Shown here one piece after another: positions 6,293 through 18,382 of a stretch of 24,202 nucleotides of DNA (position 1 is the first letter of the stretch; each line of letters starts with the position of its first letter). The position numbers and the translations under genes were made by a program. The DNA is from an uncultured bacterium (GTDB lineage: Bacteria > Hinthialibacterota > Hinthialibacteria > Hinthialibacterales > Hinthialibacteraceae). Location: positions 1 through 24,202 of the forward strand of contig CAZFOX010000003.1 in assembly GCA_964520565.1 (NCBI GenBank), in the 5' to 3' direction. The notes beneath the pieces are model-generated. The model searched no databases, was not told the origin of the DNA, and worked only from the letters and a program-made list of their open reading frames with translations.

Positions 6293-7087
6293 ATGAGAAA
6301 TCTTTGTCTGATGAGCCTGGCGTTATTCGTTGTCGTAGGCGGGATATCGTCCTTCGCGCAGGAAAAACCCGAACCGATCAAGGTTCTTCTGATTTCCGGA
6401 GACGACGTTGCACCGTTTCACGATTGGCGGGAAATCGCGGATTCCACCAGGAAGATGCTGGAGTCTTGCAAAAAATTCGAAGTGGTTGAATGCGAAGATG
6501 CTTATATTCTCGAATCCAAAACGGCCCTGGAAAAATACGCGGTGATCCTTTTAACCTCTTTCAATGCCAATACACCGACACTGTCCGATCCGGCAAAAGA
6601 AAACCTGTTGAATTTCGTGAAAAGCGGCAAAGGATTTATGGTGAACCATCTTGCCAGCGCCTCCTTCAAGGAATGGGACGAATTCGGGAATTTATGCGGG
6701 CGCAAATGGGTGATGGGGACTTCCGGTCACGGGCCGGGTGGTATGTTTACAGCCAATATCGTCAAAAAAGATCATCCGATTACCGAGGGTCTGAAAGATT
6801 TTCAGATTTTGGATGAACTCTATGCCAAGTTACAGGGCGATTCGGAGATCGAGGTTCTGGTTTCCGCCGAATCGGACTGGAGCAAAAACGTCGAGCCGCT
6901 GCTGTTTGTGAAAAATTACGGCAAGGGACGTGTGGTTCATAATGCCTTCGGGCACGATCATAAGGCTATCGAAAACGATACGAACCGGATCCTTCTCATC
7001 CGCAGCTGCGAATGGGCGGCCACCGGGAAAGTGACAAAGGGCTGTTGCGGCATGTGCGGAATGGCGGAAACCAAGGACGTAAAATAA
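6293..7087 (+). CDS. Secreted ThuA-like domain protein (class I glutamine amidotransferase-like fold)
   Basis: GAGGAG SD before ATG 6293 and a signal peptide (SSFA-Q). Motifs FVKSGKGFMVNHLAS, HPITEGL, DELY, YGKGRVVHNAFGHD and CEWAATG. Confidence 0.85.
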   Translation: MRNLCLMSLALFVVVGGISSFAQEKPEPIKVLLISGDDVAPFHDWREIADSTRKMLESCKKFEVVECEDAYILESKTALEKYAVILLTSFNANTPTLSDPAKENLLNFVKSGKGFMVNHLASASFKEWDEFGNLCGRKWVMGTSGHGPGGMFTANIVKKDHPITEGLKDFQILDELYAKLQGDSEIEVLVSAESDWSKNVEPLLFVKNYGKGRVVHNAFGHDHKAIENDTNRILLIRSCEWAATGKVTKGCCGMCGMAETKDVK

Positions 7088-7095
7088 ACTCTCTG

Positions 7096-7123
7096 AGATT
7101 GCTTCACTTCGTTCGCAATGACA
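7096..7123 (-). repeat. REP-like 28-bp palindromic repeat, copy A
   Basis: AGATTGCTTCACTTCGTTCGCAATGACA is 27/28 identical to copy C (24149-24176) and 25/28 to the reverse complement of copy B (7336-7363). It has an internal ATTGC/GCAAT stem. Confidence 0.85.
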
Positions 7124-7335
7124 GGAATGACGAAACGGCAAAAAAGTCCTCACTGTAAATTTGATCCATAAGACTTCGTGGATCGATCCAAGTGACAGGT
7201 ACAAGATTAGGTGTGAGTTTCGTCTTCAAAACACTTTTTGATGGATTATCAGGAAGTGAAGCGATTGCCTATCCGTTCGAGAAGAAAGCCTTATGGAAGA
7301 AAAAGCCTGATCGCAGAGAAAAGCCCGTTCGCAAA

Positions 7336-7363
7336 TGTCATTGCGAGCGTAGCGAAGCAATCT
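7336..7363 (+). repeat. REP-like 28-bp palindromic repeat, copy B (inverted relative to A)
   Basis: TGTCATTGCGAGCGTAGCGAAGCAATCT. It causes the spurious CHCERSEAI / VIASVAKQS peptides in the ORF track. Confidence 0.85.
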
Positions 7364-7399
7364 GCTTTTCAAGTGAAAAAACATCCCGGGGAGAGTATC

Positions 7400-9487
7400 A
7401 TGAAACGATTTCTCATCGCGTTCGTTCTCTGGCACATATTGCTGGTACAGATTACTGAAAGCCAGTCCGAACCGGTAACCACCGGCTCGTTGATCCGGGA
7501 GATGATCGATCTCCATCAGCTCGGGGATTTTCCTGATCCCGCATATAAAACCGTTCAATTCTCTTCGTACGATCACCGCAGCCAACATCCGGGCGGGCCG
7601 GGATGGTTCGCCAACAGCGATGGATTCGGAGGAGAGCCGATACCGAATTTTGAACGGGTTATCACAAAGCCCAATGCAGAGGGAATCGGCGAATACCTCA
7701 TCTGCGATGTCACCGGGCCGGGAGCCATTGTCCGGGTGTGGACGGCTGCTATCCAGGGCGATATCCGGATGTATTTGGATGGGAACAGAAAACCGGTTTT
7801 CAGCGGTTCCGCAGAGGATTTTTTCCTGAGAACCTATAAACCCTATCTTAGTAAAGCCCAATTGGACGAATCTCTATTCGAAGGTTCATTCTCTCAGCGA
7901 AACGCCGGATATTATCCGATTCCTTTTGCCAAGCGTTGCCGGATCGTATGGATCGGTAAAATCAAGGAGATTCATTTCTACCAGGTACAGATTCGAGAGT
8001 ACAAGCATTCAGCCAAGGTAATCACCTTTACACCGAACGATTTACAAACCTATCGCCAGGATATCATAAATACCGCACGGTGCTTGCACGATCCGGAAGG
8101 AACCTGGCGTTACCATTCCAGCGAAGAGCCCTCCGATCTATCCGCCGTGATTCCTCCGGGAGAAAATAAAGAAGTATTTTTCTATAAAGGAACGAAAGCC
8201 ATTGAATGCCTGGCTTTCCGCGTGCACGCGCGGGAACCGGAAAAAGCGCTTCGGCAGACCATCCTGCAAATTCATTTCGATGAATATCCCTGGGGTCAGG
8301 TGCAATCTCCTTTGGGGGATTTCTTTGGTGCGGCGCCCGGCATCAATCCCTATGATTCAATACCTTTCACTGTCAAACCTACAGGAGAAATGATCTGCCG
8401 ATTCGTTATGCCTTTTCAGCAATCGGTACGCATAATGCTTGAAAATATGGGTGATCAACCGGTTGTTGTATCCGTATCGGTACTTTTGACGGATTACGAT
8501 TGGCAAGGGGATTCTTCCATGCATTTCCGTGCGCGCTGGCGCGTCGATCACGGCCTGTTGGCATCCAACGCGGAAGTGATGGATATGCCCTATCTGGTGG
8601 CCAATGGCAAGGGCGTCTATGTGGGAACCGCGGCCATACTTCTCAACCCCAACGATATTCCATCGTCTTATGGGAACTGGTGGGGAGAGGGGGATGAAAA
8701 AATATTCGTGGATGAGGATATTCGCCCCTCCACCTTCGGTACCGGTTCGGAAGATTATTTTAATTACGCCTGGTCTTCCGGCGATATATTTCTCCATCCC
8801 TATATCGGCCAACCCCGGAACGACGGCCCCGCCAACCGGGGATTTGTCACCAATAACCGCTGGCATATTTTAGACAATCTCCCCTTCCAGTACCGGTTGA
8901 GCTTTTATATGGAACTTTTCAGCCACGAACCAACTCCCGGCGTTTCCTATGCCCGGCTGTCTTATCATTATGCCCGCCCGGGATTAATGGACGATCACCT
9001 TCCGATTACTTCCGAGGATGTCCGCCACCTGACGCTGCCGGATAATTGGGAGCCTGCTTCTGCGATGGGCGCGTCCAACTCGATCTTTTTCCCGGCAGAG
9101 TTGACGGTCAAGCCGAATGCGATGGTTGAGTTTGTATACGATCCGCTTTGGCAAGGGGGAACTTTAATGGTATGGCGGCCCGAAAAGGAAGGAGACACCC
9201 TTTCGTTCACCCTTCCCTTAGAAAAAGAAGGAAGTTTCGTCGTTAAGCTGGCGGCCGCGCGAACTCCCCGTTCGGGCAAAATCTCCGTGTTGATGGATGG
9301 AGCTCCGCTCGATTTTGCCGGCGTGATCGATCTTTTCGAACCGGATCGGACACTGCTTCGGCCTGTGGAATCGAAAAAAGTCGAATTGAAAAAAGGCGAT
9401 CATGTTTTGACCATCCGGTACGAGGGGAAGAATCCGGACAGCCAGGAGAATGAAATCGGCCTCGATTTTATCTGGTTGCAGGAATAG
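7400..9487 (+). CDS. Secreted DUF2961 / glycoside hydrolase family 172 protein with C-terminal beta-sandwich domain
   Basis: Signal peptide MKRFLIAFVLWHILLVQITES after a GGGGAGAG SD. Motifs QFSSYD, GPGAIVRVW and WWGEGDEKIFVD...FGTGSEDYFNYAW (the conserved GH172 glutamates). The ORF-track extension upstream of 7400 runs through repeat copy B and is rejected. Confidence 0.85.
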   Translation: MKRFLIAFVLWHILLVQITESQSEPVTTGSLIREMIDLHQLGDFPDPAYKTVQFSSYDHRSQHPGGPGWFANSDGFGGEPIPNFERVITKPNAEGIGEYLICDVTGPGAIVRVWTAAIQGDIRMYLDGNRKPVFSGSAEDFFLRTYKPYLSKAQLDESLFEGSFSQRNAGYYPIPFAKRCRIVWIGKIKEIHFYQVQIREYKHSAKVITFTPNDLQTYRQDIINTARCLHDPEGTWRYHSSEEPSDLSAVIPPGENKEVFFYKGTKAIECLAFRVHAREPEKALRQTILQIHFDEYPWGQVQSPLGDFFGAAPGINPYDSIPFTVKPTGEMICRFVMPFQQSVRIMLENMGDQPVVVSVSVLLTDYDWQGDSSMHFRARWRVDHGLLASNAEVMDMPYLVANGKGVYVGTAAILLNPNDIPSSYGNWWGEGDEKIFVDEDIRPSTFGTGSEDYFNYAWSSGDIFLHPYIGQPRNDGPANRGFVTNNRWHILDNLPFQYRLSFYMELFSHEPTPGVSYARLSYHYARPGLMDDHLPITSEDVRHLTLPDNWEPASAMGASNSIFFPAELTVKPNAMVEFVYDPLWQGGTLMVWRPEKEGDTLSFTLPLEKEGSFVVKLAAARTPRSGKISVLMDGAPLDFAGVIDLFEPDRTLLRPVESKKVELKKGDHVLTIRYEGKNPDSQENEIGLDFIWLQE

Positions 9488-9575: not shown

Positions 9576-11063
9576 ATGAATCATAAACCGTTATGGATTT
9601 GCTTCTTTCTTCTGAATGGAATAATCCCCATCTTTTCTGTGGATGCCCCAAGGCCGCTCGAGCCGCTTCCCAGTCTGGCGCAGCTGGAATGGCAACGGTT
9701 GGAATATATCGCTTTTGCCCATTTCGGGATGAATACCTTCACCGGCCGCGAGTGGGGAGAGGGAACGGAAAATCCGGCTTTGTTTAATCCAACACAGTTT
9801 GATGCGAATCAATGGGCAAAATCCGTGAAAGACGCGGGGATGAAAATGATCATCCTGACCGCCAAGCATCACGATGGTTTTTGCCTGTGGCCCAGCCAAT
9901 ATACCGAGCACTCGGTTAAAAACAGTCCCTGGCGCGGTGGGAAGGGAGACGTCGTCCGCGAAGTGGCCGACGCCTGCCTGAAAGAAGGACTCAAGCTGGG
10001 GCTGTATTGTTCGCCCTGGGATCGCCACGAGAAAACCTATGGCGATTCACCCGCCTACAATCGATTCTTCCGCAATCAGCTACGCGAATTGCTGTCGAAC
10101 TATGGGACGGTAACCGAGGTCTGGTTCGACGGCGCCTGCGGCGAGGGACCGAACGGAAAACGGCAGGTTTACGATTGGGATAGCTACTATCAGGTCGTCC
10201 GCGAGCTACAACCCAGCGCCCTGATTTTTGGCTGCGGGCCGGATATCCGTTGGGTGGGAAACGAATCGGGCGTCGGCCGTGAAACCGAATGGAGCGCGCT
10301 GCCAATGACACAGGATATTTTGGATTTGAATTGGGCGGCGTATCAAAATACGTTTGTGGATGGTTCGGGTGTCGAGCATGCGCAGCAAGTCGCGGAGTCC
10401 TCGGCCAGACATCCGATGATGTGGTATCCCGCCGAATGCGACGTCTCGATCCGGCCAGGCTGGTTTTATCACCCCGAAGAAGACGGGAAAGTCAAATCGC
10501 TCGATCACCTGCTGGATATTTACTTTAAGTCGGTGGGGCGAAACGGCGTTCTGTTGCTCAATCTCCCGCCAGATAAGCGGGGTTTGATCCACGAGAACGA
10601 CGTTCAGCGTTTACTGGAATTACGCCGTGTTATCGAGGATACATTCCGTGTGGATTTAGCGCGATTTAAACCCGCGAAAGCTACCCAAGTGCGGGGTAAT
10701 CACCCGTTTTTCGGCCCGGAACAGGCGCTGGATGGATGCGCCGAAACCTATTGGACGACGAACGACAATGTGCTGACGGCGTCGATGGAAGTCGATCTGG
10801 GCAAACCAACCGAATTGGATTGCGCGATGATGCAAGAACATATCGCCCTGGGTCAGCGAGTGTATTCTTATTCCATCGAAGCGTGGGATGGTACTGTATG
10901 GAAAGAAATATCGCGGGGAACGACGATTGGGTATAAGAAAATGGACCGCTTTTCGCCATTATTGACAAGCAAGGTGCGCCTGAATATCCATAAGTCTCGT
11001 GCATGCCCAACCATTGAAACATTCGGACTTTATAAGATTTCGCACGGAACCGCCCGGAAATAA
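9576..11063 (+). CDS. Secreted alpha-L-fucosidase (GH29) with C-terminal F5/8 type C (CBM32-like) domain
   Basis: Motifs HFGMNTF, LTAKHHDGFCLWPS, YCSPWDR, EVWFDGA, RWVGNESG and PAECDVSIRPGWFYH, then ALDG..TYW...VDLG...GTTIGYK. The start is uncertain among 9552, 9570 and 9576. Confidence 0.92.
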   Translation: MNHKPLWICFFLLNGIIPIFSVDAPRPLEPLPSLAQLEWQRLEYIAFAHFGMNTFTGREWGEGTENPALFNPTQFDANQWAKSVKDAGMKMIILTAKHHDGFCLWPSQYTEHSVKNSPWRGGKGDVVREVADACLKEGLKLGLYCSPWDRHEKTYGDSPAYNRFFRNQLRELLSNYGTVTEVWFDGACGEGPNGKRQVYDWDSYYQVVRELQPSALIFGCGPDIRWVGNESGVGRETEWSALPMTQDILDLNWAAYQNTFVDGSGVEHAQQVAESSARHPMMWYPAECDVSIRPGWFYHPEEDGKVKSLDHLLDIYFKSVGRNGVLLLNLPPDKRGLIHENDVQRLLELRRVIEDTFRVDLARFKPAKATQVRGNHPFFGPEQALDGCAETYWTTNDNVLTASMEVDLGKPTELDCAMMQEHIALGQRVYSYSIEAWDGTVWKEISRGTTIGYKKMDRFSPLLTSKVRLNIHKSRACPTIETFGLYKISHGTARK

Positions 11064-11670
11064 TGATCAGACGTTTTACCTGGATGTAAGCGGAGAATTT
11101 TCAATCACCGAAATTTCAATTATTTTGGGCTAGGAAATTATTGTAACGATCTAGCGGGGGATTTTTTTGTAAGTCTATGTTTATCAGGTAGAAGAAAAAT
11201 AAAAATATGACGCCGAAAGGGGAAAAGCGCAACGAGCGATAGCGTTTTTTTAATCCGGCGGAATGATACGAATCGGGAAATAATAAAAATAGGTCATTGA
11301 TTTTCTTGAGAATATATGGTTCAATATTTATAAGCTTTGTGAAAGCAGGAAAAACAAATTCTTCTGCGAACGCTCTTTCTCGCAGTTTGATTTTGTGGAT
11401 TTCGCAATAAAATGTGGTTGAGGAATGGTTTTTGGGAATCGTATGGATGTATAAATCCATATTGTAGCGAGTATACTAAAGCGGCTGGGAGAAATCCTCT
11501 CTTCCGTGTGTGAAGATATGTACCTTCCGATTATGCTTCGGATTGGTGCTGAATGTAGGAGTCTATTCGCCCTTCGCGCCCCTTTTCCGGGAAAAGAATT
11601 TCTCAAGAACCGCCTTCGGGTACGGATTTTTCGGATTGGGAAGGCAACGTTAACAGGGAGAAGACCACCG

Positions 11671-12454
11671 ATGAATCGAGTGGCTGCAACCACGAATATG
11701 GCGGCGACTGCTTTTAACACGATCCAACAAGACATAAATGGTTTTATTCACCCATCGGCGCTGATCGATCCCAGTGTGCAACTGGGAGAAGGCGTTATCA
11801 TCCACGCCAATGTAGTTGTTGAACGAGGCGTTCGTATCGGAAGTCATACAGTGATTCATGCGGGATGTTACGTGGGGGAAGATAGTTGTATTGGGGAAAG
11901 CACGGTGCTTTTGCCCGCCGTAACCCTGCGGGAAAAAACGCAGGTGGGTGCCCGGGTATTAGTGGGTGCGGGTGTCGTGATCGGCAGTGATGGTTTGGCT
12001 ATGCCAAACAGGAAAATGGCGTTAATTTCAAGATTCCGCAGGTTGGATATGTCGTGATTGAAGACGATGTATCCATCGGTTCCAACACGACGATCGACCG
12101 GGCCACTCTCGGCCAAACCATTATCAGCCGTGGCGCGAAAATCGGCAGTTTGGTTCAGGTCGGACATAACGCCCATGTCGGCATCGAAACCGCTGTGGGG
12201 GACGGGGTGGAAATCATGTCTCCATCGGGAATGGAGTCGGAATGGTCGGTCATATTCGCGTCGGCGATCGTGCACAAGTCATCAGTGGAGCCGGGATCAG
12301 TAAGGATGTCATGGATGGAGTGAAGATGCAGGGCGTTCCGGCGATGGATGAAGAATCGTACGGCAAATATTCCCAATTTATTGCCAAATTTCCCGAATTT
12401 ATCACGCGGCTTCAGGAGTTGGAAAAAAAGCTCGGATCGGCCTCGGACGAGTGA
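11671..12454 (+). pseudogene. lpxD: LpxD-like hexapeptide-repeat acyltransferase, lacking the N-terminal domain and broken by two frameshifts
   Basis: Three consecutive frames give IHPSALIDPSVQLG...VIGSDG | (F)GYAKQENGVNFKIPQVGYVVIEDDVSIGSNTTIDRATLG...VQVGHN | NHVSIGNGVGMVGHIRVGD...LEKKL. Breaks are at 11994-11996 and about 12205-12210. AGGGAG SD before ATG 11671. Confidence 0.8.
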
Positions 12455-12729
12455 CCGGCTCCCCTCTCATCCGAATTTCGTTTCTTCGTCTTTTCTCGCT
12501 TCTCCAGTATTTCTTCTTCCGGTTTATTCTCCAACCAGAACGGAATGGCTCTGAAACTTGCCTCGTCATTGAAACGCTGTTCGTTAAACACCTTTACAAT
12601 CTCGTGGGAACGGGCATGATTTATAAGTCTGACTTTTTCCAAAGAATCGCTTAATCACCGAAGCGGCGGTTCCGTTTTTCGGAATCGTGTGGGGTTGTGT
12701 GCGAGCAAATCATCAAAATGAGGAGCGCT

Positions 12730-13869
12730 ATGGTTCTAGAACGTATTATCACGTCCGAATCGGTTACAGAAGGGCATCCCGATAAAATAGCGGATCAAAT
12801 TTCCGACGGCATCCTGGATGCGATTTATGAAAAAGACCCCAACGGCCGGGTCGCTTGCGAAACATTGGTGACGACCGGTTTGATTATGATCGCGGGTGAA
12901 ATCACCACCTCGGCGCAGATCGATTACGCGCAGATTGCACGTTCGGTGGTTAACGATATTGGATATAACAAAGCGGAGTATGGTTTCGATTGCAATACCT
13001 GCTCTGTTTTGGTATCGCTGGACCGTCAATCGCCCGATATCGCGCAGGGCGTTAATGAATCGGAAAATCACGAACAGGGCGCGGGCGACCAGGGTATGAT
13101 GTACGGTTATGCCACCGATGAGAACGATTCGTATATGCCCATGCCCATCACTCTGGCACATGGTTTAACCCGCCGTCTTTCCGAAGTGCGGAAAAGCGGC
13201 ATCCTGCCCTGGGTTCGATCGGATGGAAAATCGCAGGTTTCCGTGGTCTACGAGGGTGACGCCATAAAGCGGGTAGATGCCGTGGTCGTTTCCACCCAAC
13301 ACGCTCCCGAGATTTCCCATAAGGATATCAGCGATGCCATTACCGAAGAGGTGATCAAGAAAGTCATTCCTGCCAATCTGCTTCACAAAGATACCAAATT
13401 TCATATCAATCCGACCGGCCGTTTTGTCGTCGGAGGCCCGATGGGCGATTGCGGTCTGACCGGGCGCAAGATAATCGTCGATACCTACGGCGGGGTTGGC
13501 CGGCATGGCGGTGGCGCTTTTTCGGGCAAGGATCCTTCCAAGGTAGACCGCAGCGCGGCGTATGCGGCGCGGCATGTTGCCAAAAATGTGGTAGCTGCCG
13601 GTCTGGCATCCCGTTGCGAAGTTCAACTGGCGTATGCGATCGGCGTAGCACAGCCGGTTTCTATCAATGTCGATACCTTCGGAACCGGAAAACTCTCCGA
13701 TGAAGAAATCTCCAAACGGGTAAAAACCGTCTTCGATCTTCGACCCGCCGCGATTATCAAGCGTCTCAACCTGCGCCGTCCCATCTATCGCGCCACCGCG
13801 GCATACGGCCACTTCGGCCGCCCCGAATTCCCCTGGGAACAGCTGGATTATGTGGATAAACTCAAATAA
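12730..13869 (+). CDS. metK: S-adenosylmethionine synthetase
   Basis: [44 protein letters not shown] and [16 protein letters not shown] before ATG 12730. Confidence 0.98.
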
Positions 13870-13897
13870 AAGGTGCTTTACTTTTTCCTGATCAAAT

Positions 13898-13922
13898 AAA
13901 CCCCTCTTCGGAGGGGTTTTTC
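13898..13922 (+). terminator. Rho-independent terminator after metK
   Basis: Perfect 9-bp stem AAACCCCTC/GAGGGGTTT closing a cUUCGg tetraloop, with a T-rich tail. Confidence 0.85.
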
Positions 13923-13934
13923 ATTTCTTCTAAT

Positions 13935-13963
13935 TTGATATACACTCCCATATTGTGTATCAT
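13935..13963 (+). promoter_or_regulatory. Sigma70-type promoter for the XRE regulator-ahcY unit, overlapped by an inverted repeat
   Basis: TTGATA (13935-13940), a 17-nt spacer, then TATCAT (13958-13963). ATACAC-N9-GTGTAT (13940-13960) spans the spacer. Confidence 0.6.
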
Positions 13964-14140
13964 GATCGTAATATGAATTGAATGCGTGTGAATCATTAAA
14001 ACGAATCGATATCCGCTGTCTCGTTTTTACATTACGAAACTGAACCTTGAATCTACCTCCCCTTCATCCATTTCAACATCTCCGTTATTGAATTTTCCTT
14101 CACGCGGAGTACTCTTATACTCCAGAACGAAGGTGCTCCC

Positions 14141-14872
14141 ATGCGTCTGGAAGAACTCGGAAACCGGATACGCGCTCAGCGCGAAAAAATGGGTCTCAAA
14201 CAGACCGATATCGCCAATGCCCTGCAGATCAGCCCCCAGGCGGTCTCCAAGTGGGAACGGGCGGAAAATGGCCCGGATATTACTATTTTAGGAAACCTGG
14301 CCAAACTTCTCGGGGTATCCACCGACTGGCTGCTGGGAATGCACGTCGAGGATACGGACGTTTTCGAAGCGACCGTCTTCGCTTCGAGCGTCTGCGGGGC
14401 CTATAAGAAATCGCAGGGAATGAAACCAGCCAGTTTTGCACTATGGGCGAACGGGTTGTTCTTTTCCCTGACCGAAGCGGTACTGAAATTCGATGCCGTC
14501 CCCATTAAGTGCATGGGCGATCAATTTCTATGCTTCTTCTCCGGTGCTGCTCATCCGGAACGAGCTTTGAAAGCCGCCCGGCTGGCGCGCGAGACTATCG
14601 CGGAAAATCTCGTAATTGGGCTTAGCAGCGGAGAAATTTACCTGGGAACCGTAGGTCATCCCGATTATGCCCGCCCCGATATCATGGGTGAGGTTGTCAA
14701 CCTGGCTTTCTTGACAATGGCCTGGGCGGAAACCAATGCCGATAGCCGTATCGCCGCCACGGATCGGACGGTTTCCCGGATCGGAGGGAAAATCGAAACC
14801 GGCAAGACGGAACCGGTTCAATTCAAGGGAATCAGCAGTAAAGTGCAGGTAAAAGAAATCCTCATCGGGTGA
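14141..14872 (+). CDS. XRE-family HTH transcriptional regulator fused to a degenerate class III adenylate/guanylate cyclase-like domain
   Basis: The N-terminus [34 protein letters not shown]...[14 protein letters not shown] is a classic XRE HTH. The C-terminus TVFASSV...[12 protein letters not shown]...[14 protein letters not shown]...[13 protein letters not shown]...FKG follows the class III cyclase motif order. Confidence 0.85.
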
Positions 14873-14939
14873 AGTGCGCCTGGGTTTATATCTTCAAAAG
14901 CCTATATTCATCAAATACTTATATAAAGAGGTGCATGCA

Positions 14940-16400
14940 ATGGCTCAAGTCTTGGAAAAAAACGGAATCGATCTTTCCACCATTCAATTGCCTAATTATT
15001 CCGGTCTGCCTCATAAGGTAGCGGATATGAAGCAGGCGGATTTTGGCAGGAAAGAGATCGAAATTGCGGAAGAGGAAATGCCGGGTCTGATGGCCGCGCG
15101 GAAAAAATTCGGTAAAGAGAAACCTCTTTCCGGCGCACGAATTTCCGGATCGCTGCACATGACCATTCAGACGGCGGTGCTGATCGAAACACTGAAACAA
15201 TTGGGCGCGGATGTCCGCTGGGCATCGTGCAACATCTTTTCCACCCAGGATCATGCGGCGGCGGCGATTGCCCAGGCGGGCACACCAGTCTATGCCTGGA
15301 AGGGCGAATCGCTGGAAGATTATTGGGAATGCACATTACAGGCGCTTTCGTTTCCGGGTGGCAAGGGACCGAACTTGATCGTCGATGATGGAGGCGATGC
15401 AACGCTTTTGTTTCACATGGGTTACCGTGCCGAAGAAGATCCTTCCACCCTGGATGAACCGACGGACAACCGCGAACTGGCCATCATCAAGGCGCTTCTG
15501 AAACGGGAGCTGAAAAAGAATCCCACCCGCTGGCACGATGCCCTTCCTGATATGTACGGCGTGTCCGAAGAAACCACGACTGGTGTGCATCGCCTTTATG
15601 AGATGCAGAAAAAAGGAACGCTTCTTTTCCCCGCCATCAATGTGAATGACTCGGTAACCAAGTCGAAATTCGACAATCTATATGGCTGCCGCGAATCGCT
15701 GGCCGACGGGATCAAACGCGCTACCGACGTTATGGTTGCTGGAAAGGTCGTATGTGTCTGCGGTTACGGCGATGTGGGTAAGGGATGCGCCCAATCGATG
15801 CGCGGTTTCGGCGCGCGCGTTCTGGTCACCGAAATCGATCCCATTTGCGCCCTGCAGGCAGCAATGGAAGGGTACGAAGTGACGACCGTGGAAGATGCCC
15901 TGAGCGAGGCGAATGTCTTTGTTACTTCCACCGGCAACTGCGAAGTGATCCGCATCGAGCATATGGAAAAGATGAAGGATCAGGCCATTGTCTGCAATAT
16001 CGGCCATTTCGACAACGAGATTCAGGTCAATAAATTGAATGAGTTTCCGGGTATTCAAAAAATTAACATTAAACCCCAGGTCGATAAATATATCTTCCCG
16101 GATGGGCATGCTATTTTCATGCTGGCCGAAGGCCGCCTGGTCAACCTGGGATGCGCTACCGGCCATCCCTCATTTGTGATGTCTAACTCATTCACAAATC
16201 AGACGTTGGCGCAGATTGACCTTTGGAAGAATCGAAAGGCGATTGGTGTATATACCCTCTCCAAACAGCTGGATGAAGAGGTGGCACGTTTGCACCTGGA
16301 GAAACTGGGTGTCAAGCTAACTAAACTGACACAAAAACAGGCTGATTATATTGGTGTACCGCTTGAAGGCCCCTTTAAACCGGAACACTACCGGTATTGA
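14940..16400 (+). CDS. ahcY: Adenosylhomocysteinase (SAH hydrolase), long form with catalytic-domain insert
   Basis: [81 protein letters not shown] and KPEHYRY. GAGGTG SD before ATG 14940. Confidence 0.98.
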
Positions 16401-16429
16401 GTTGAACCAATAACCCTGAAGACATGGAG

Positions 16430-16460
16430 CGCGGACGTCCCCGTCCGCGTTTTCATTTTT
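16430..16460 (+). terminator. Rho-independent terminator after ahcY
   Basis: Stem CGCGGAC (16430-16436) / GTCCGCG (16443-16449), 6-nt loop, followed by TTTTCATTTTT. Confidence 0.7.
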
Positions 16461-16563
16461 AAAAAACAATCCAAAAATTTCCCCCAAAAAATCTGTTGAC
16501 AAGATGTTAAATTTAGTGCAATATAGTTTATTCTAAATTCAGTGGGTTGAGGGTTCTCGGTGG

Positions 16564-16604
16564 TTTTCCACATCTGCATCTTGCCTGTGAACAACTGTGA
16601 ATAA
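16564..16604. promoter_or_regulatory. Cluster of three DnaA-box-like 9-mers
   Basis: TTTTCCACA (16564-16572, plus strand) and TTATTCACA (minus strand of 16596-16604) fit TT(A/T)TNCACA exactly. TTGTTCACA (minus strand of 16586-16594) has one mismatch. Confidence 0.55.
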
Positions 16605-16876
16605 CTTTTTGATTCCTCATAAGTTCCGATTCAATTTTCCATCGTGAAATCCCTCGCTTCCCCATAGAGCCACTGCTTTTTTCCTATCGAAGCAGGGCGA
16701 ATGAACGCTTGGTTTTCTTTGGCGAAAGCAGCAAAGCGTTCTATTCATCTGGGTTTTTCTGTCAAAGATATTCCTGCCAACGTTCGTTTGCCCTCCAAAA
16801 GACCGGGGGATGACTGTTTGTAGACAGCATCACTCTGGAAAGCACAAAGGATTTGAATTTGAGAGGAGCCAAAACA

Positions 16877-18382
16877 ATGGAAGAACGAGTTCCTATCGTC
16901 CAACCAGCCGCCGAACCAAAACCGGTTGGTGGAGTATCGCACGGGTGGTTGGCATTCTGGTTGATTGTCTTCCTGGTCCTGGGATTCGGCTGAATTGGTC
17001 TTTATCTGGATCAACGCTTGTCGTCCCTGGAAGAAAAAGTACTCACGCAGACCGGCGATGTATCCAAACAGGCAGAATCCACGCTTCAGGTTTTGCAAAC
17101 AGCACGAAAAGAGATATTGGGCAATCGTCAGGAGACTGCCGCCTTCGCACAAAAATTCACCTCCACCCTCGACGGCATGTCGGCGCTTCTGACGCAGACA
17201 GTCAATGCGTTTTCGGAACAAACGATACAACTCACGAAGGCCATCGAAAAGAAGGAAAAAAGCCAGTCGGAAACGCTGGATTCCGCACTGGCGGATCTGA
17301 AACAGGAAATGGCAGCCACCCGGGATGCCGCCGTCCAGGCAAAAAGTAAAGCGGAATCGGTTGATCAGCAATTGGCCGTTCTGGGTGGGCAGCTACAGCA
17401 AATGAATCAAAACCTGGCGGATGGTTTTATCACGTTAACCCAGTTAAGCCGGGATATGAGTCAGGCGATCGGCGATCATCTGGAGCAACAACAGAAGTCG
17501 ATCGACAACCAGCTGGCGGATTTGAGAGATGTTTCCACCCAAAGCCTGGAATCGGTTCGGGAACAACTCGCTTCACTCGATCAAAATACCAGTACAGTGC
17601 AAAACAACTTGGCGCGCCACATCGATGCAGTGGGCGATGAGGTACGGGCCGGATTCAGTGAACAGAAAGAGATTGCTTCTTCTATTCAGAATCATCTTGT
17701 GGAATCCGTACCAGCCGCCGGAGCGCTCTCGCAATTGGCAGAGAAAGTTGGGCATTTATCGAGTGGTGTGGAAACCGGTTTTTCGCAGGGATCGAAGGAT
17801 CGGGAAGCGTTGCGCGCCGCTCTGGCCGATCTGGAATATAACCTGAATGGCCGAACCGATAACCTTCTGGTGGAATTAACCGCCATTCATCAGAAAGAGG
17901 ATTCCTCCCCAACGGCTGAACGGATGGCCGGGGTAGAGGGACAACTAAACTCCCTGGCGCAAGGTCTGCAAAGTCTTCAGGCCAACCTGGGCAATCAACT
18001 CGCCGAAGCCGCTCAATCCGCTGTAGTGAAAGGGCTTCAATCCTATATCGGCCCCGCCGATGAAAAACTAGTTCAGGCCGCATCGCACTTAAAAATCCTG
18101 CAAGAACAAATCCAGTCCGTGCATACCGCCGTGCAGAGAGGAATCGAAGCTACCCGCGCCAAGGCGGCGGAGTGGATGCAGAATCCTCAGTCGGAAGCCG
18201 CGAAAAACTCTTTTGAAGCAGGTCTTCTGGAATTTGCCAACATGATGCAAAGCACGCAATCGCAGGTAGAGACCATCCAGAAACAAATCTCCGGCATTAC
18301 GGCGGCATTAAGTCCGGAATCCGGTGAAAAAAACCTGGAGGACGGAACGCCCATTGGAATGGCGGGCGAGAGTCCGCAATAG
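16877..18382 (+). CDS. Single-pass membrane-anchored long coiled-coil protein interrupted by an in-frame TGA at 16991-16993 (pseudogene, readthrough or sequence error)
   Basis: GAGAGGAG SD before ATG 16877, then MEERVPIVQPAAEPKPVGGVSHGWLAFWLIVFLVLGFG*IGLYLDQRLSSLEEKV, in frame with ORF 17018..18382. The body is rich in Q/L/A/S/E heptad-like sequence. Confidence 0.7.

Follow-up and report, generated by a model that had tools for sequence, protein, structure and literature searches.

A helix-turn-helix protein with a degenerate cyclase-homology domain as a candidate regulator of S-adenosylhomocysteine recycling in uncultured bacteria

Introduction

A gene in the 24,202 nt stretch of DNA studied here (the window; contig CAZFOX010000003.1 of an uncultured bacterium of the Hinthialibacteraceae) raises the question of what a DNA-binding protein would do with a cyclase domain that has lost catalytic residues. 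The gene lies between metK, encoding S-adenosylmethionine (SAM) synthetase, and ahcY, encoding S-adenosylhomocysteine (SAH) hydrolase. Its product joins an XRE-family helix-turn-helix (HTH) to a degenerate cyclase-homology domain (CHD). An earlier note on this DNA had proposed, from a reading by eye, that the protein is a regulator of the SAM cycle in which the cyclase fold has been repurposed to bind an adenosyl ligand. Its sequence observations are confirmed here apart from the weight given to metK, and its proposal was favoured wherever computation could put it to a test. A tandem DNA element and an intact sister subclade, neither of them in that note, add to the case.

The explanation favoured here, which is reasonably likely as a whole, is that the protein is a one-component regulator of the SAH-recycling unit that senses an adenosyl ligand, most likely SAH. 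The parts of this explanation differ in strength. That the protein is a transcription factor controlling the ahcY unit is very likely, judging from its sequence and that of its relatives. That an adenosyl ligand is sensed in the CHD is likely on the residues conserved there, and that this ligand would be SAH has an even chance or slightly better.

A family of XRE proteins with a cyclase-homology domain

The window protein is a bona fide XRE-family HTH protein, with a match to HTH_3 (PF01381) at residues 10-64 (E=7.7e-16; 58.3 bits against a cut-off of 23). The match to Guanylate_cyc (PF00211) covers residues 78-230 and profile positions 10-172 of 183, and scores 21.0 bits against the Pfam cut-off of 21.9; some relatives carry a precomputed PF00211 match. 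Despite the sub-threshold Pfam score, the homology of the CHD to class III cyclases is secure. A family profile built from 25 members and compared with the PDB finds the Cya2 cyclase (2w01, E=9.9e-10) and, for the HTH, the P22 c2 repressor (E=1.2e-11); the HTH also resembles that of the 434 repressor. The AlphaFold model, a monomer built on the family alignment, has a mean pLDDT of 89.2. Its top 50 Foldseek matches are all class III cyclases (best 2w01, E=1.3e-12; target-normalised TM 0.72-0.78).

Only XRE-type HTH models and Guanylate_cyc were matched in the Pfam and NCBIfam scan of the protein, with no match to ArsR-type, MetJ/RHH or MetR/LysR models. The architecture is therefore unlike that of the known SAM-cycle regulators, as had been claimed. 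A reading of the XRE domain as that of a phage repressor or antitoxin was rejected, the NCBIfam matches being sub-threshold and to the HTH only, in a housekeeping neighbourhood.

An initial search found 973 proteins; the best 120 are full-length, at 240-316 aa. Clustering at 50% identity gave about 80 representatives with E<=1e-30, and the full-length ones among these are 234-281 aa long and have a single architecture. All members of the family come from metagenome-assembled genomes (MAGs) or metagenomes. Database entries give them only the names 'helix-turn-helix domain-containing protein', 'transcriptional regulator with XRE-family HTH domain' or 'class 3 adenylate cyclase'; the nearest named relative, from a Candidatus Omnitrophica MAG, has 79% identity and the same gene order. 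Record titles place members in the Latescibacterota, Nitrospirota, Nitrospinota, Hydrogenedentota, Planctomycetota, Armatimonadota, Gemmatimonadota, Sumerlaeota and Omnitrophota; in all, it occurs in ten or more phyla, most of them uncultured. The recognition helix, S(P/A) followed by 11 further residues, is almost invariant across phyla, as is expected of a shared operator.

No published description of the family was found in the full-text literature on XRE and cyclase domains, SAH regulators and cyclase pseudoenzymes, subscription-only papers being outside this scope. We know of no CHD that serves as the effector domain of a transcription factor. The sensor domain and the candidate operator of this putative one-component metabolite-responsive regulator thus appear to be undescribed.

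Residues kept and lost in the cyclase-homology domain

In class III cyclases two Asp bind the metals, a Lys and an Asp read the adenine, an Asn contacts the ribose and an Arg stabilises the transition state at the alpha-phosphate. The equivalent positions in the window protein (Table 1) were mapped by aligning a CHD-only profile to Rv1625c (4p2f/4p2m), and were counted in 152 full-length members, whose identity to the window protein ranges over 28-96%. Position 83, that of the first metal Asp, is S in 105, T in 21, D in 9, A in 7 and G in 5, so that 138 have one of S, T, A or G. Position 191, that of the transition-state Arg, is L in 126, R in 13 and I in 3 (129 with L or I). Both catalytic residues are absent from almost all of the ahcY-linked members. 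K229 corresponds to the gamma-phosphate Lys of the KG motif at the C-terminus and is a Lys in only 85 of the 152.

The other four positions are kept at 93-96%: K123 in 141, D127 in 144, D180 in 146 and N187 in 141 members. The earlier note had read the same two losses and four retentions in the window protein. Its only displacement concerns the first metal Asp, which HMMER puts at the second Ser of FASS and the by-eye reading had put at the first; both are Ser. Near-invariant in the 152 members, and specific to this family, are N104, R141, H173, Y176 and W195.

It appears that the adenine and ribose residues are held by selection while the metal and phosphate residues drift, and this is a property of the family rather than an accident of one sequence. 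The CHD is predicted to be no longer able to cyclise nucleotides, having lost the first metal Asp and the transition-state Arg, and with a gamma-phosphate Lys that varies across the family. The protein is homologous to class III cyclases yet should not be filed as a cyclase, because three defining catalytic features fail.

Two other readings of the domain can be weighed on these counts. In one the CHD is still an enzyme or a binder of ATP or cyclic AMP (cAMP), for example a cyclase of low activity or a nucleotidyl transferase of another kind; the gene neighbourhood would then reflect something other than ahcY regulation. Many members are labelled 'class 3 adenylate cyclase' by JGI, one metal Asp and the Asn are kept, and a sister subclade described below looks fully competent. 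This reading is nevertheless very improbable, given the paired loss of the first metal Asp and the Arg in the ahcY-linked members and the variable gamma-phosphate Lys; in mutagenesis of class III cyclases the loss of either catalytic residue lowers activity by orders of magnitude. In the other the degenerate CHD is a dimerisation scaffold without a ligand, and the protein is a constitutive autoregulator or responds through another partner. CHDs are obligate dimers and many XRE proteins carry C-terminal oligomerisation domains, but a scaffold would not account for purine- and ribose-contacting residues that are kept at 93-96% across proteins of only 28-60% overall identity while their phosphate and metal counterparts drift. 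A protein so closely tied to a single metabolic step should, moreover, receive a metabolic signal. A scaffold role is improbable.

Genes next to the family members

Loci with a full-length relative came from three sources: a genome scan covering species representatives, metagenomes searched with the cyclase half only, and look-ups of exact proteins. The 90 loci form 74 non-redundant loci after clustering at 90% protein identity, and 62 of these are informative in having enough downstream sequence. In 44 of the 62 informative clusters (71%), which come from over 10 phyla, ahcY is directly downstream on the same strand; its adjacency and the residue pattern both recur from phylum to phylum, which is more than chance would give. 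None of 50 control loci, which come from the same genome scan and match only the HTH, has ahcY there (Fisher p=6e-17), and neither metH, a methyl-tetrahydrofolate (methyl-THF) methyltransferase gene, thyX, an adenosine deaminase gene nor thrC was seen downstream in them. The same regulator-ahcY order is found at three loci outside the tally (P0072, P0015 and P0018).

Six more clusters have a different partner gene. Directly downstream are a full-length metH in one cluster (L016), adenosine deaminase in one (L008) and threonine synthase, thrC (TIGR00260), in one (L009/L025). A small open reading frame (ORF), C11, is followed by a gene for methyl-THF:corrinoid methyltransferase (NF005719) in one cluster (L018) and by thyX in two (L015 and L021). 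In Latescibacterota and Gemmatimonadota the gene order is regulator, ahcY, metF. The conserved partnership is with SAH disposal and homocysteine and methyl recycling, not with SAM synthesis. This favours SAH as the ligand, since removal of SAH and recycling of homocysteine are the tasks of the genes that the protein would control.

The earlier note had stressed the position between metK and ahcY and had named metK, ahcY, metF and metH as the neighbours to be tallied for its homologues. Both flanks are as named (TIGR01034 and TIGR00936) and the association with ahcY, metF and metH is borne out; the emphasis on metK is not. It lies within 4 kb of the regulator gene in only 3 of the 74 clusters, all at least 74% identical to the window protein, and one further relative has metK 2 kb upstream in the same hexapeptide-transferase-to-metK synteny block. 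Membership of metK in the regulon was rejected, the gene having its own terminator and no element upstream, and the adjacency being rare. These observations also bear on the possibility that SAM is the sensed ligand and that the protein acts as a repressor of the unit at high SAM levels, in the manner of S-box riboswitches or SamR. The adenosyl part is common to SAM and SAH, D127 could face the sulfonium group, and metK adjoins in the window and in two related clusters; set against this are the separate transcription and rare linkage of metK. Known SAM-responsive regulons centre on metK and methionine biosynthesis, whereas ahcY with metF is the hallmark of SAH-responsive ones (PMC4239095). SAM is a distinctly improbable ligand.

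The effector could also be adenosine or another adenine nucleoside, such as methylthioadenosine (MTA) or 5'-deoxyadenosine, acting through the same architecture and DNA binding; AhcY and adenosine-removing enzymes would then be tuned to the adenosine level. The reaction of AhcY is reversible and is governed by the adenosine level. The kept residues specify only the adenine and ribose part of the ligand, and a tandem element and regulator precede adenosine deaminase in L008, while the downstream gene in L140 is purA. Such adenosine-linked partners occur in only 2 of the 62 clusters, however, and recycling of homocysteine and methyl groups would explain metF, metH, the methyl-THF methyltransferase and thrC as partners better than purine salvage would. 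The invariant polar residues R141, H173 and Y176 would moreover be free to hold an amino-acid moiety. An adenine nucleoside as the effector is unlikely, although adenosine is the foremost alternative and ranks above SAM, and SAH is retained as the preferred ligand.

Some loci depart from the usual arrangement. In two relatives with 76-80% identity a gene for a ydjC-family carbohydrate deacetylase stands between the regulator gene and ahcY, apparently in the same unit (L081:6763-7725 and L083:6762-7724). C11 is a conserved ORF of 123 aa that has no Pfam or NCBIfam match (L015:8775-9146, L018:8755-9126 and L021:8744-9112); the loci in which it separates the regulator gene from thyX or the methyl-THF:corrinoid methyltransferase gene are of Syntrophia/Desulfobacterota type. 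A divergent member, L140, has 47% identity and Pro in place of D127, with purA downstream.

A tandem DNA element upstream of the regulator gene

One invariant block, 30-75 bp before the start codon, emerges from footprinting among relatives whose protein identity is 76-89%. The element consists of two direct copies of TCAAC-N5-CGTyA, 21 bp or two helical turns apart, the proximal one abutting a putative TTGnnn -35 that is followed by a TAnnnT -10. TTG and TA..CT are invariant in the footprinting alignment (A2). The strict pattern CAAC-N9-ATTG is found 62-108 nt upstream in 21 of 34 loci, always on the strand of the gene, where about 0.005 would be expected per 200 nt.

Alignment of 53 non-identical sites on the CAAC-N9-ATTG pattern brings out columns that had no part in their selection. 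The distal copy (columns -22 to -8) has TCAAC at frequencies of 0.78-0.97, followed by CG(T) and A. Downstream, TTG is found at +14 to +16 and, in columns that were likewise not used for selection, TAnnnT at +37 to +42, with a 17-bp spacer. The position weight matrix (PWM) made 3 matches of at least 18 bits in 1.28 Mb of control DNA, a background of 0.0004 per upstream window.

The co-occurrence of protein and element suggests that the XRE-CHD protein binds the tandem element. At locus L008 the two copies are found after the regulator gene, ahead of adenosine deaminase, and not before the regulator; the element is therefore not merely an autoregulatory site.

Other candidates for an operator were rejected. 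A search for exact palindromes upstream (half-sites of 5-7 nt, gaps of 0-16) found nothing common beyond close relatives; the element, being asymmetric, came to light through footprinting alone. A promoter-like TTGATA-17-TATCAT at 13935-13963 (+), 10 of 12 positions matching, is not conserved in the relatives of 76-89% identity. This sigma-70-like match encloses ATACAC-N9-GTGTAT, lies just past the metK terminator and 180 bp upstream of the regulator gene, and is probably due to chance or lineage-specific. Co-variation of the recognition helix and the DNA motif could not be used: the helix is nearly invariant, and the slight variation in both at three Syntrophia-type loci concerns too few to count. 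Those loci (L015, L018 and L021) have a more palindromic motif, TCAAC-N5-GTTGA, and the HTH changes KQxNLA and ERGANxPD.

Two further matches to the PWM can be recorded. L140 (positions about 980 and 6622-8043) has a second strong copy of the element (25.2 bits), some 5 kb away and just upstream of a gene for an S41 peptidase. The only other match above 15 bits in the window is a weak one at about 911 (+; 15.7 bits), between ORFs 352-813 and 1905-2495.

A sister subclade with the intact catalytic set

A minority of divergent members, for example P0126 and P0135, have Asp at 83 and Arg at 191. P0126 reads FTDIPLFT...IKYIGD...DVMGDTVNLAAR...KG, and P0135 resembles it. With P0126 as the query, a subclade came up in which 18 sequences have the full D-K-D-D-N-R set and GFT, and all of these pass PF00211. 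This sister subclade (P0126 and P0291-P0301) has the length, the recognition helix, the GHPDY motif and the upstream TCAAC...CGTCATTG element in common with the main family, and differs from it in the full F(S/T)D..GFT / K..GD / D / N..R / KG set. L149 (5001-5744), the one intact member with retrievable DNA, keeps the upstream element at 19.9 bits. The subclade is predicted to be a DNA-binding adenylyl cyclase, which would be of interest in its own right.

P0291, P0292 and P0293 are encoded by stand-alone genes convergent with a MacB-type (MacB/FtsX) ATP-binding cassette (ABC) transporter operon and have no methyl-cycle neighbour. The same lack of a methyl-cycle neighbour is seen for the partly degenerate P0312 and P0309. 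In the five intact or partly degenerate contexts, three of which have one synteny, adjacency to ahcY is 0/5 against 44/62 in the main family (p=0.003). The absence of a link to ahcY in the intact subclade fits a repurposing of the cyclase fold. The simplest history is that an autoregulated DNA-binding adenylyl cyclase lost the metal Asp and the Arg, kept the adenine pocket and was recruited before ahcY.

Organisation of the locus

The features of the locus are collected in Table 1. The product of metK is identified by TIGR01034 (E=9e-184) and three S-AdoMet_synt Pfam domains, the model alignment beginning at residue 18 of the ORF. The physical unit consists of promoter, regulator gene, ahcY and terminator, and metK is a separate upstream unit. 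The terminators of both units are strong. It is likely from this layout that the regulator gene and ahcY are co-transcribed.

Table 1. Features of the metK-ahcY locus (window positions; residues are those of the 243-aa protein)
Feature	Position	Strand	Details
metK (SAM synthetase)	12730-13869	+	ORF 12697-13869 opens with GTG at 12697
metK intrinsic terminator	13898-13919	+	9-pair stem with 5 G-C pairs, AAACCCCTC-TTCG-GAGGGGTTT, then T-run
Distal 15-bp element copy	14052-14066	+	TCTAC-ctccc-CTTCA, degenerate here; exactly 21 bp upstream of proximal copy
Proximal element copy	14073-14087	+	TCAAC-atctc-CGTTA; PWM 26.8 bits; candidate operator/activator site
Putative -35, TTGAAT	14088-14093	+	abuts proximal copy
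Putative -10, TACTCT	14110-14115	+	16-bp spacer after -35 here
XRE-HTH and degenerate CHD gene	14141-14872	+	243-aa ORF
HTH	14147-14335	+	aa 3-65; five helices in model
Linker		+	aa 66-73, from model
CHD	14360-14860	+	aa 74-240; beta-alpha-beta-beta-alpha-beta in model
S83	14387-14389	+	aligns to Asp of FADIVGFT (first metal Asp)
K123	14507-14509	+	aligns to Lys of IKVSGD
D127	14519-14521	+	aligns to Asp of IKVSGD (second metal Asp)
D180	14678-14680	+	aligns to Asp of YDVWG
N187	14699-14701	+	aligns to Asn of VNVASR
L191	14711-14713	+	aligns to Arg of VNVASR (transition-state Arg)
Spacer, regulator gene to ahcY	14873-14939	+	67 bp; ribosome-binding site AAGAGG; without significant structure
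ahcY (SAH hydrolase)	14940-16400	+	ATG at 14940; TIGR00936 E=2e-187
Intrinsic terminator closing the regulator-ahcY unit	16426-16453	+	12-pair stem with 7 G-C pairs, then T-run

The short gap before ahcY without a hairpin had been pointed out before and is upheld by folding, the spacer being no better than shuffled sequence (z=+0.40). An attenuator there was rejected on the same ground. Only a weak terminator-like pattern was seen, overlapping the stop codon of the regulator gene, and no PWM site of the element lies in the spacer or upstream of metK. The lack of a riboswitch noted earlier also stands: comparison of 11000-17500 with Rfam gave nothing at E<=1, and no match over the whole window reaches gathering score. 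A riboswitch or leader RNA was rejected for this reason and because the conserved block lies 5' of the putative -35 and -10, where it would not be transcribed.

The remainder of the window holds ordinary chromosomal genes, for a fucosidase, a tetratricopeptide repeat (TPR) protein, a prepilin peptidase, endonuclease III and a histidine kinase. Upstream of metK, lpxD (11506-12454, +) is split over three frames in ORFs 11506-12057, 12054-12323 and 12242-12454. These match consecutive parts of TIGR01853 (positions 80-180, 198-250 and 270-321), the initial 64 residues of the first ORF being outside the match. The split gene is either a pseudogene by two frameshifts or a product of indel errors in the assembly. 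Directly after the ahcY terminator, 17018-18382 (+) encodes a protein of 454 aa that is rich in Gln, Ala and Leu and probably all-helical, with only sub-threshold Pfam matches of coiled-coil type (apolipoprotein and SF-assemblin).

Comparison with known systems

SahR is an SAH-responsive repressor of the ArsR family in Alpha-, Delta- and some Gammaproteobacteria, with a 20-bp palindrome as its operator and a core regulon of sahR, ahcY, metH, metF and metK (Leyn et al. 2014, PMC4239095). The SAH riboswitch has a core set of ahcY and metF, to which one lineage adds metH; metK is never part of it (PMC4239095). The system described here resembles SahR in its location beside methyl-cycle genes, in the core targets ahcY, metF and metH, in a probable autoregulation and in its putative logic, whereby the sensed metabolite is the substrate of the controlled enzyme. 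It differs in having an XRE HTH and a CHD instead of an ArsR winged helix, and a tandem direct repeat abutting the -35 instead of a palindrome. The metK gene, part of the SahR core regulon, is not linked here, and the taxa are mostly uncultured non-proteobacterial phyla. With the SAH riboswitch it has the controlled set of ahcY, metF and metH without metK in common, but the regulator is a protein rather than an RNA, and the window has no Rfam match. The resemblance to both is in the way of working, and the system is a member of neither.

The active class III cyclases (Rv1625c, 4p2f/1yk9; CyaC, 1wc0; Cya2, 2w01; CyaB, 3r5g) have the same fold as the CHD, and the Lys/Asp adenine pair, the second metal Asp and the Asn are at homologous positions. 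The window protein has Ser at the place of the first metal Asp, Leu at that of the transition-state Arg and GAY instead of GFT; the Lys of the C-terminal KG is variable, and an XRE HTH takes the place of the usual sensor or membrane modules. Receptors derived from dead cyclase-type sites are found in the forskolin pseudo-site of mammalian adenylyl cyclase and in degenerate GGDEF domains that bind GTP or c-di-GMP. In these, as is proposed here, a site without catalysis is kept for the binding of a small molecule. Their ligands are nucleotides or a diterpene, and what they regulate is an enzyme or a protein-protein interaction; the domain of the present family is fused to a DNA-binding domain, and its ligand would be free of phosphate.

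The closest solved relatives of the HTH are in the lambda cI, P22 c2 and 434 repressors. These differ in reading inverted repeats and in having a LexA-like C-terminal domain, whereas the window protein is in a housekeeping context and not in a prophage. A site near -42 beside a weak -35 does, on the other hand, resemble that of cI at OR2 when it activates PRM.

Proposed mechanism

In the mechanism that we propose, the Cro/C1-type HTH would recognise the tandem element abutting the -35 of its own promoter. The protein would so control a two-gene unit of itself and ahcY, and elsewhere also metF, or metH instead of ahcY. All class III cyclases dimerise, forming a head-to-tail dimer with the sites at the interface, and the CHD is expected to dimerise in the same way. 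A phosphate-free adenosyl metabolite may bind the degenerate site at this interface, and its binding would alter the occupancy or the activity of the promoter.

There is a slight lean towards ligand-dependent activation because the sites are centred near -44 and -65 and the -35 is weak, only its TTG being conserved. Lambda cI at PRM and the PhoB boxes provide examples of such activator-dependent promoter geometry. By this analogy the protein may act as an activator, with chances a little above even; a repressor that is released by SAH, as with SahR, is nearly as likely.

Several observations weigh against the proposal of an SAH-sensing regulator of ahcY. No gene of the panel stands beside the regulator in 12 of the 62 clusters, one of these having purA (L140), and the purA and adenosine deaminase (L008) neighbours would also fit an adenosine or purine signal. 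The element is asymmetric and directly repeated, with a weak dyad symmetry in its CAA...TTG part only, and the usual targets of XRE dimers are inverted repeats; some other factor might bind it instead. The contrast between intact and dead forms has an effective sample smaller than its five contexts. No role is assigned to D127, nor to N104, R141, H173, Y176 and W195.

Implications

A broader claim would be that here, as the first case of its kind, a class III CHD gave up catalysis to become the small-molecule receptor of a transcription factor, that it is an SAH receptor, that this is a third independent solution to SAH-responsive control of the methyl cycle, beside the SAH riboswitch and SahR, and that the sister clade, still catalytic, represents the ancestral state. 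We regard the chances of this being right in full as even. Association with genes of methionine and SAM metabolism, the lack of which in homologues would have spoken against a role in the SAM cycle, was found in the 44 clusters with ahcY, besides the six clusters with a different partner gene.

If the proposal is true, it would name a regulator of SAH recycling for the Hydrogenedentota, Latescibacterota, Omnitrophota, Planctomycetota, Nitrospinota, Gemmatimonadota and Sumerlaeota, among others. The CHD would join the sensor modules of one-component regulators. The family would be a natural example of the passage from enzyme to receptor, with intact, intermediate and dead forms under one DNA-binding specificity, in which the change might be retraced by exchanging residues. 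A compact SAH- or adenosyl-responsive factor with a 36-bp operator would also provide a biosensor part for methyltransferase engineering. Misleading annotations as 'class 3 adenylate cyclase', by which such proteins are counted as cAMP producers, would be corrected.

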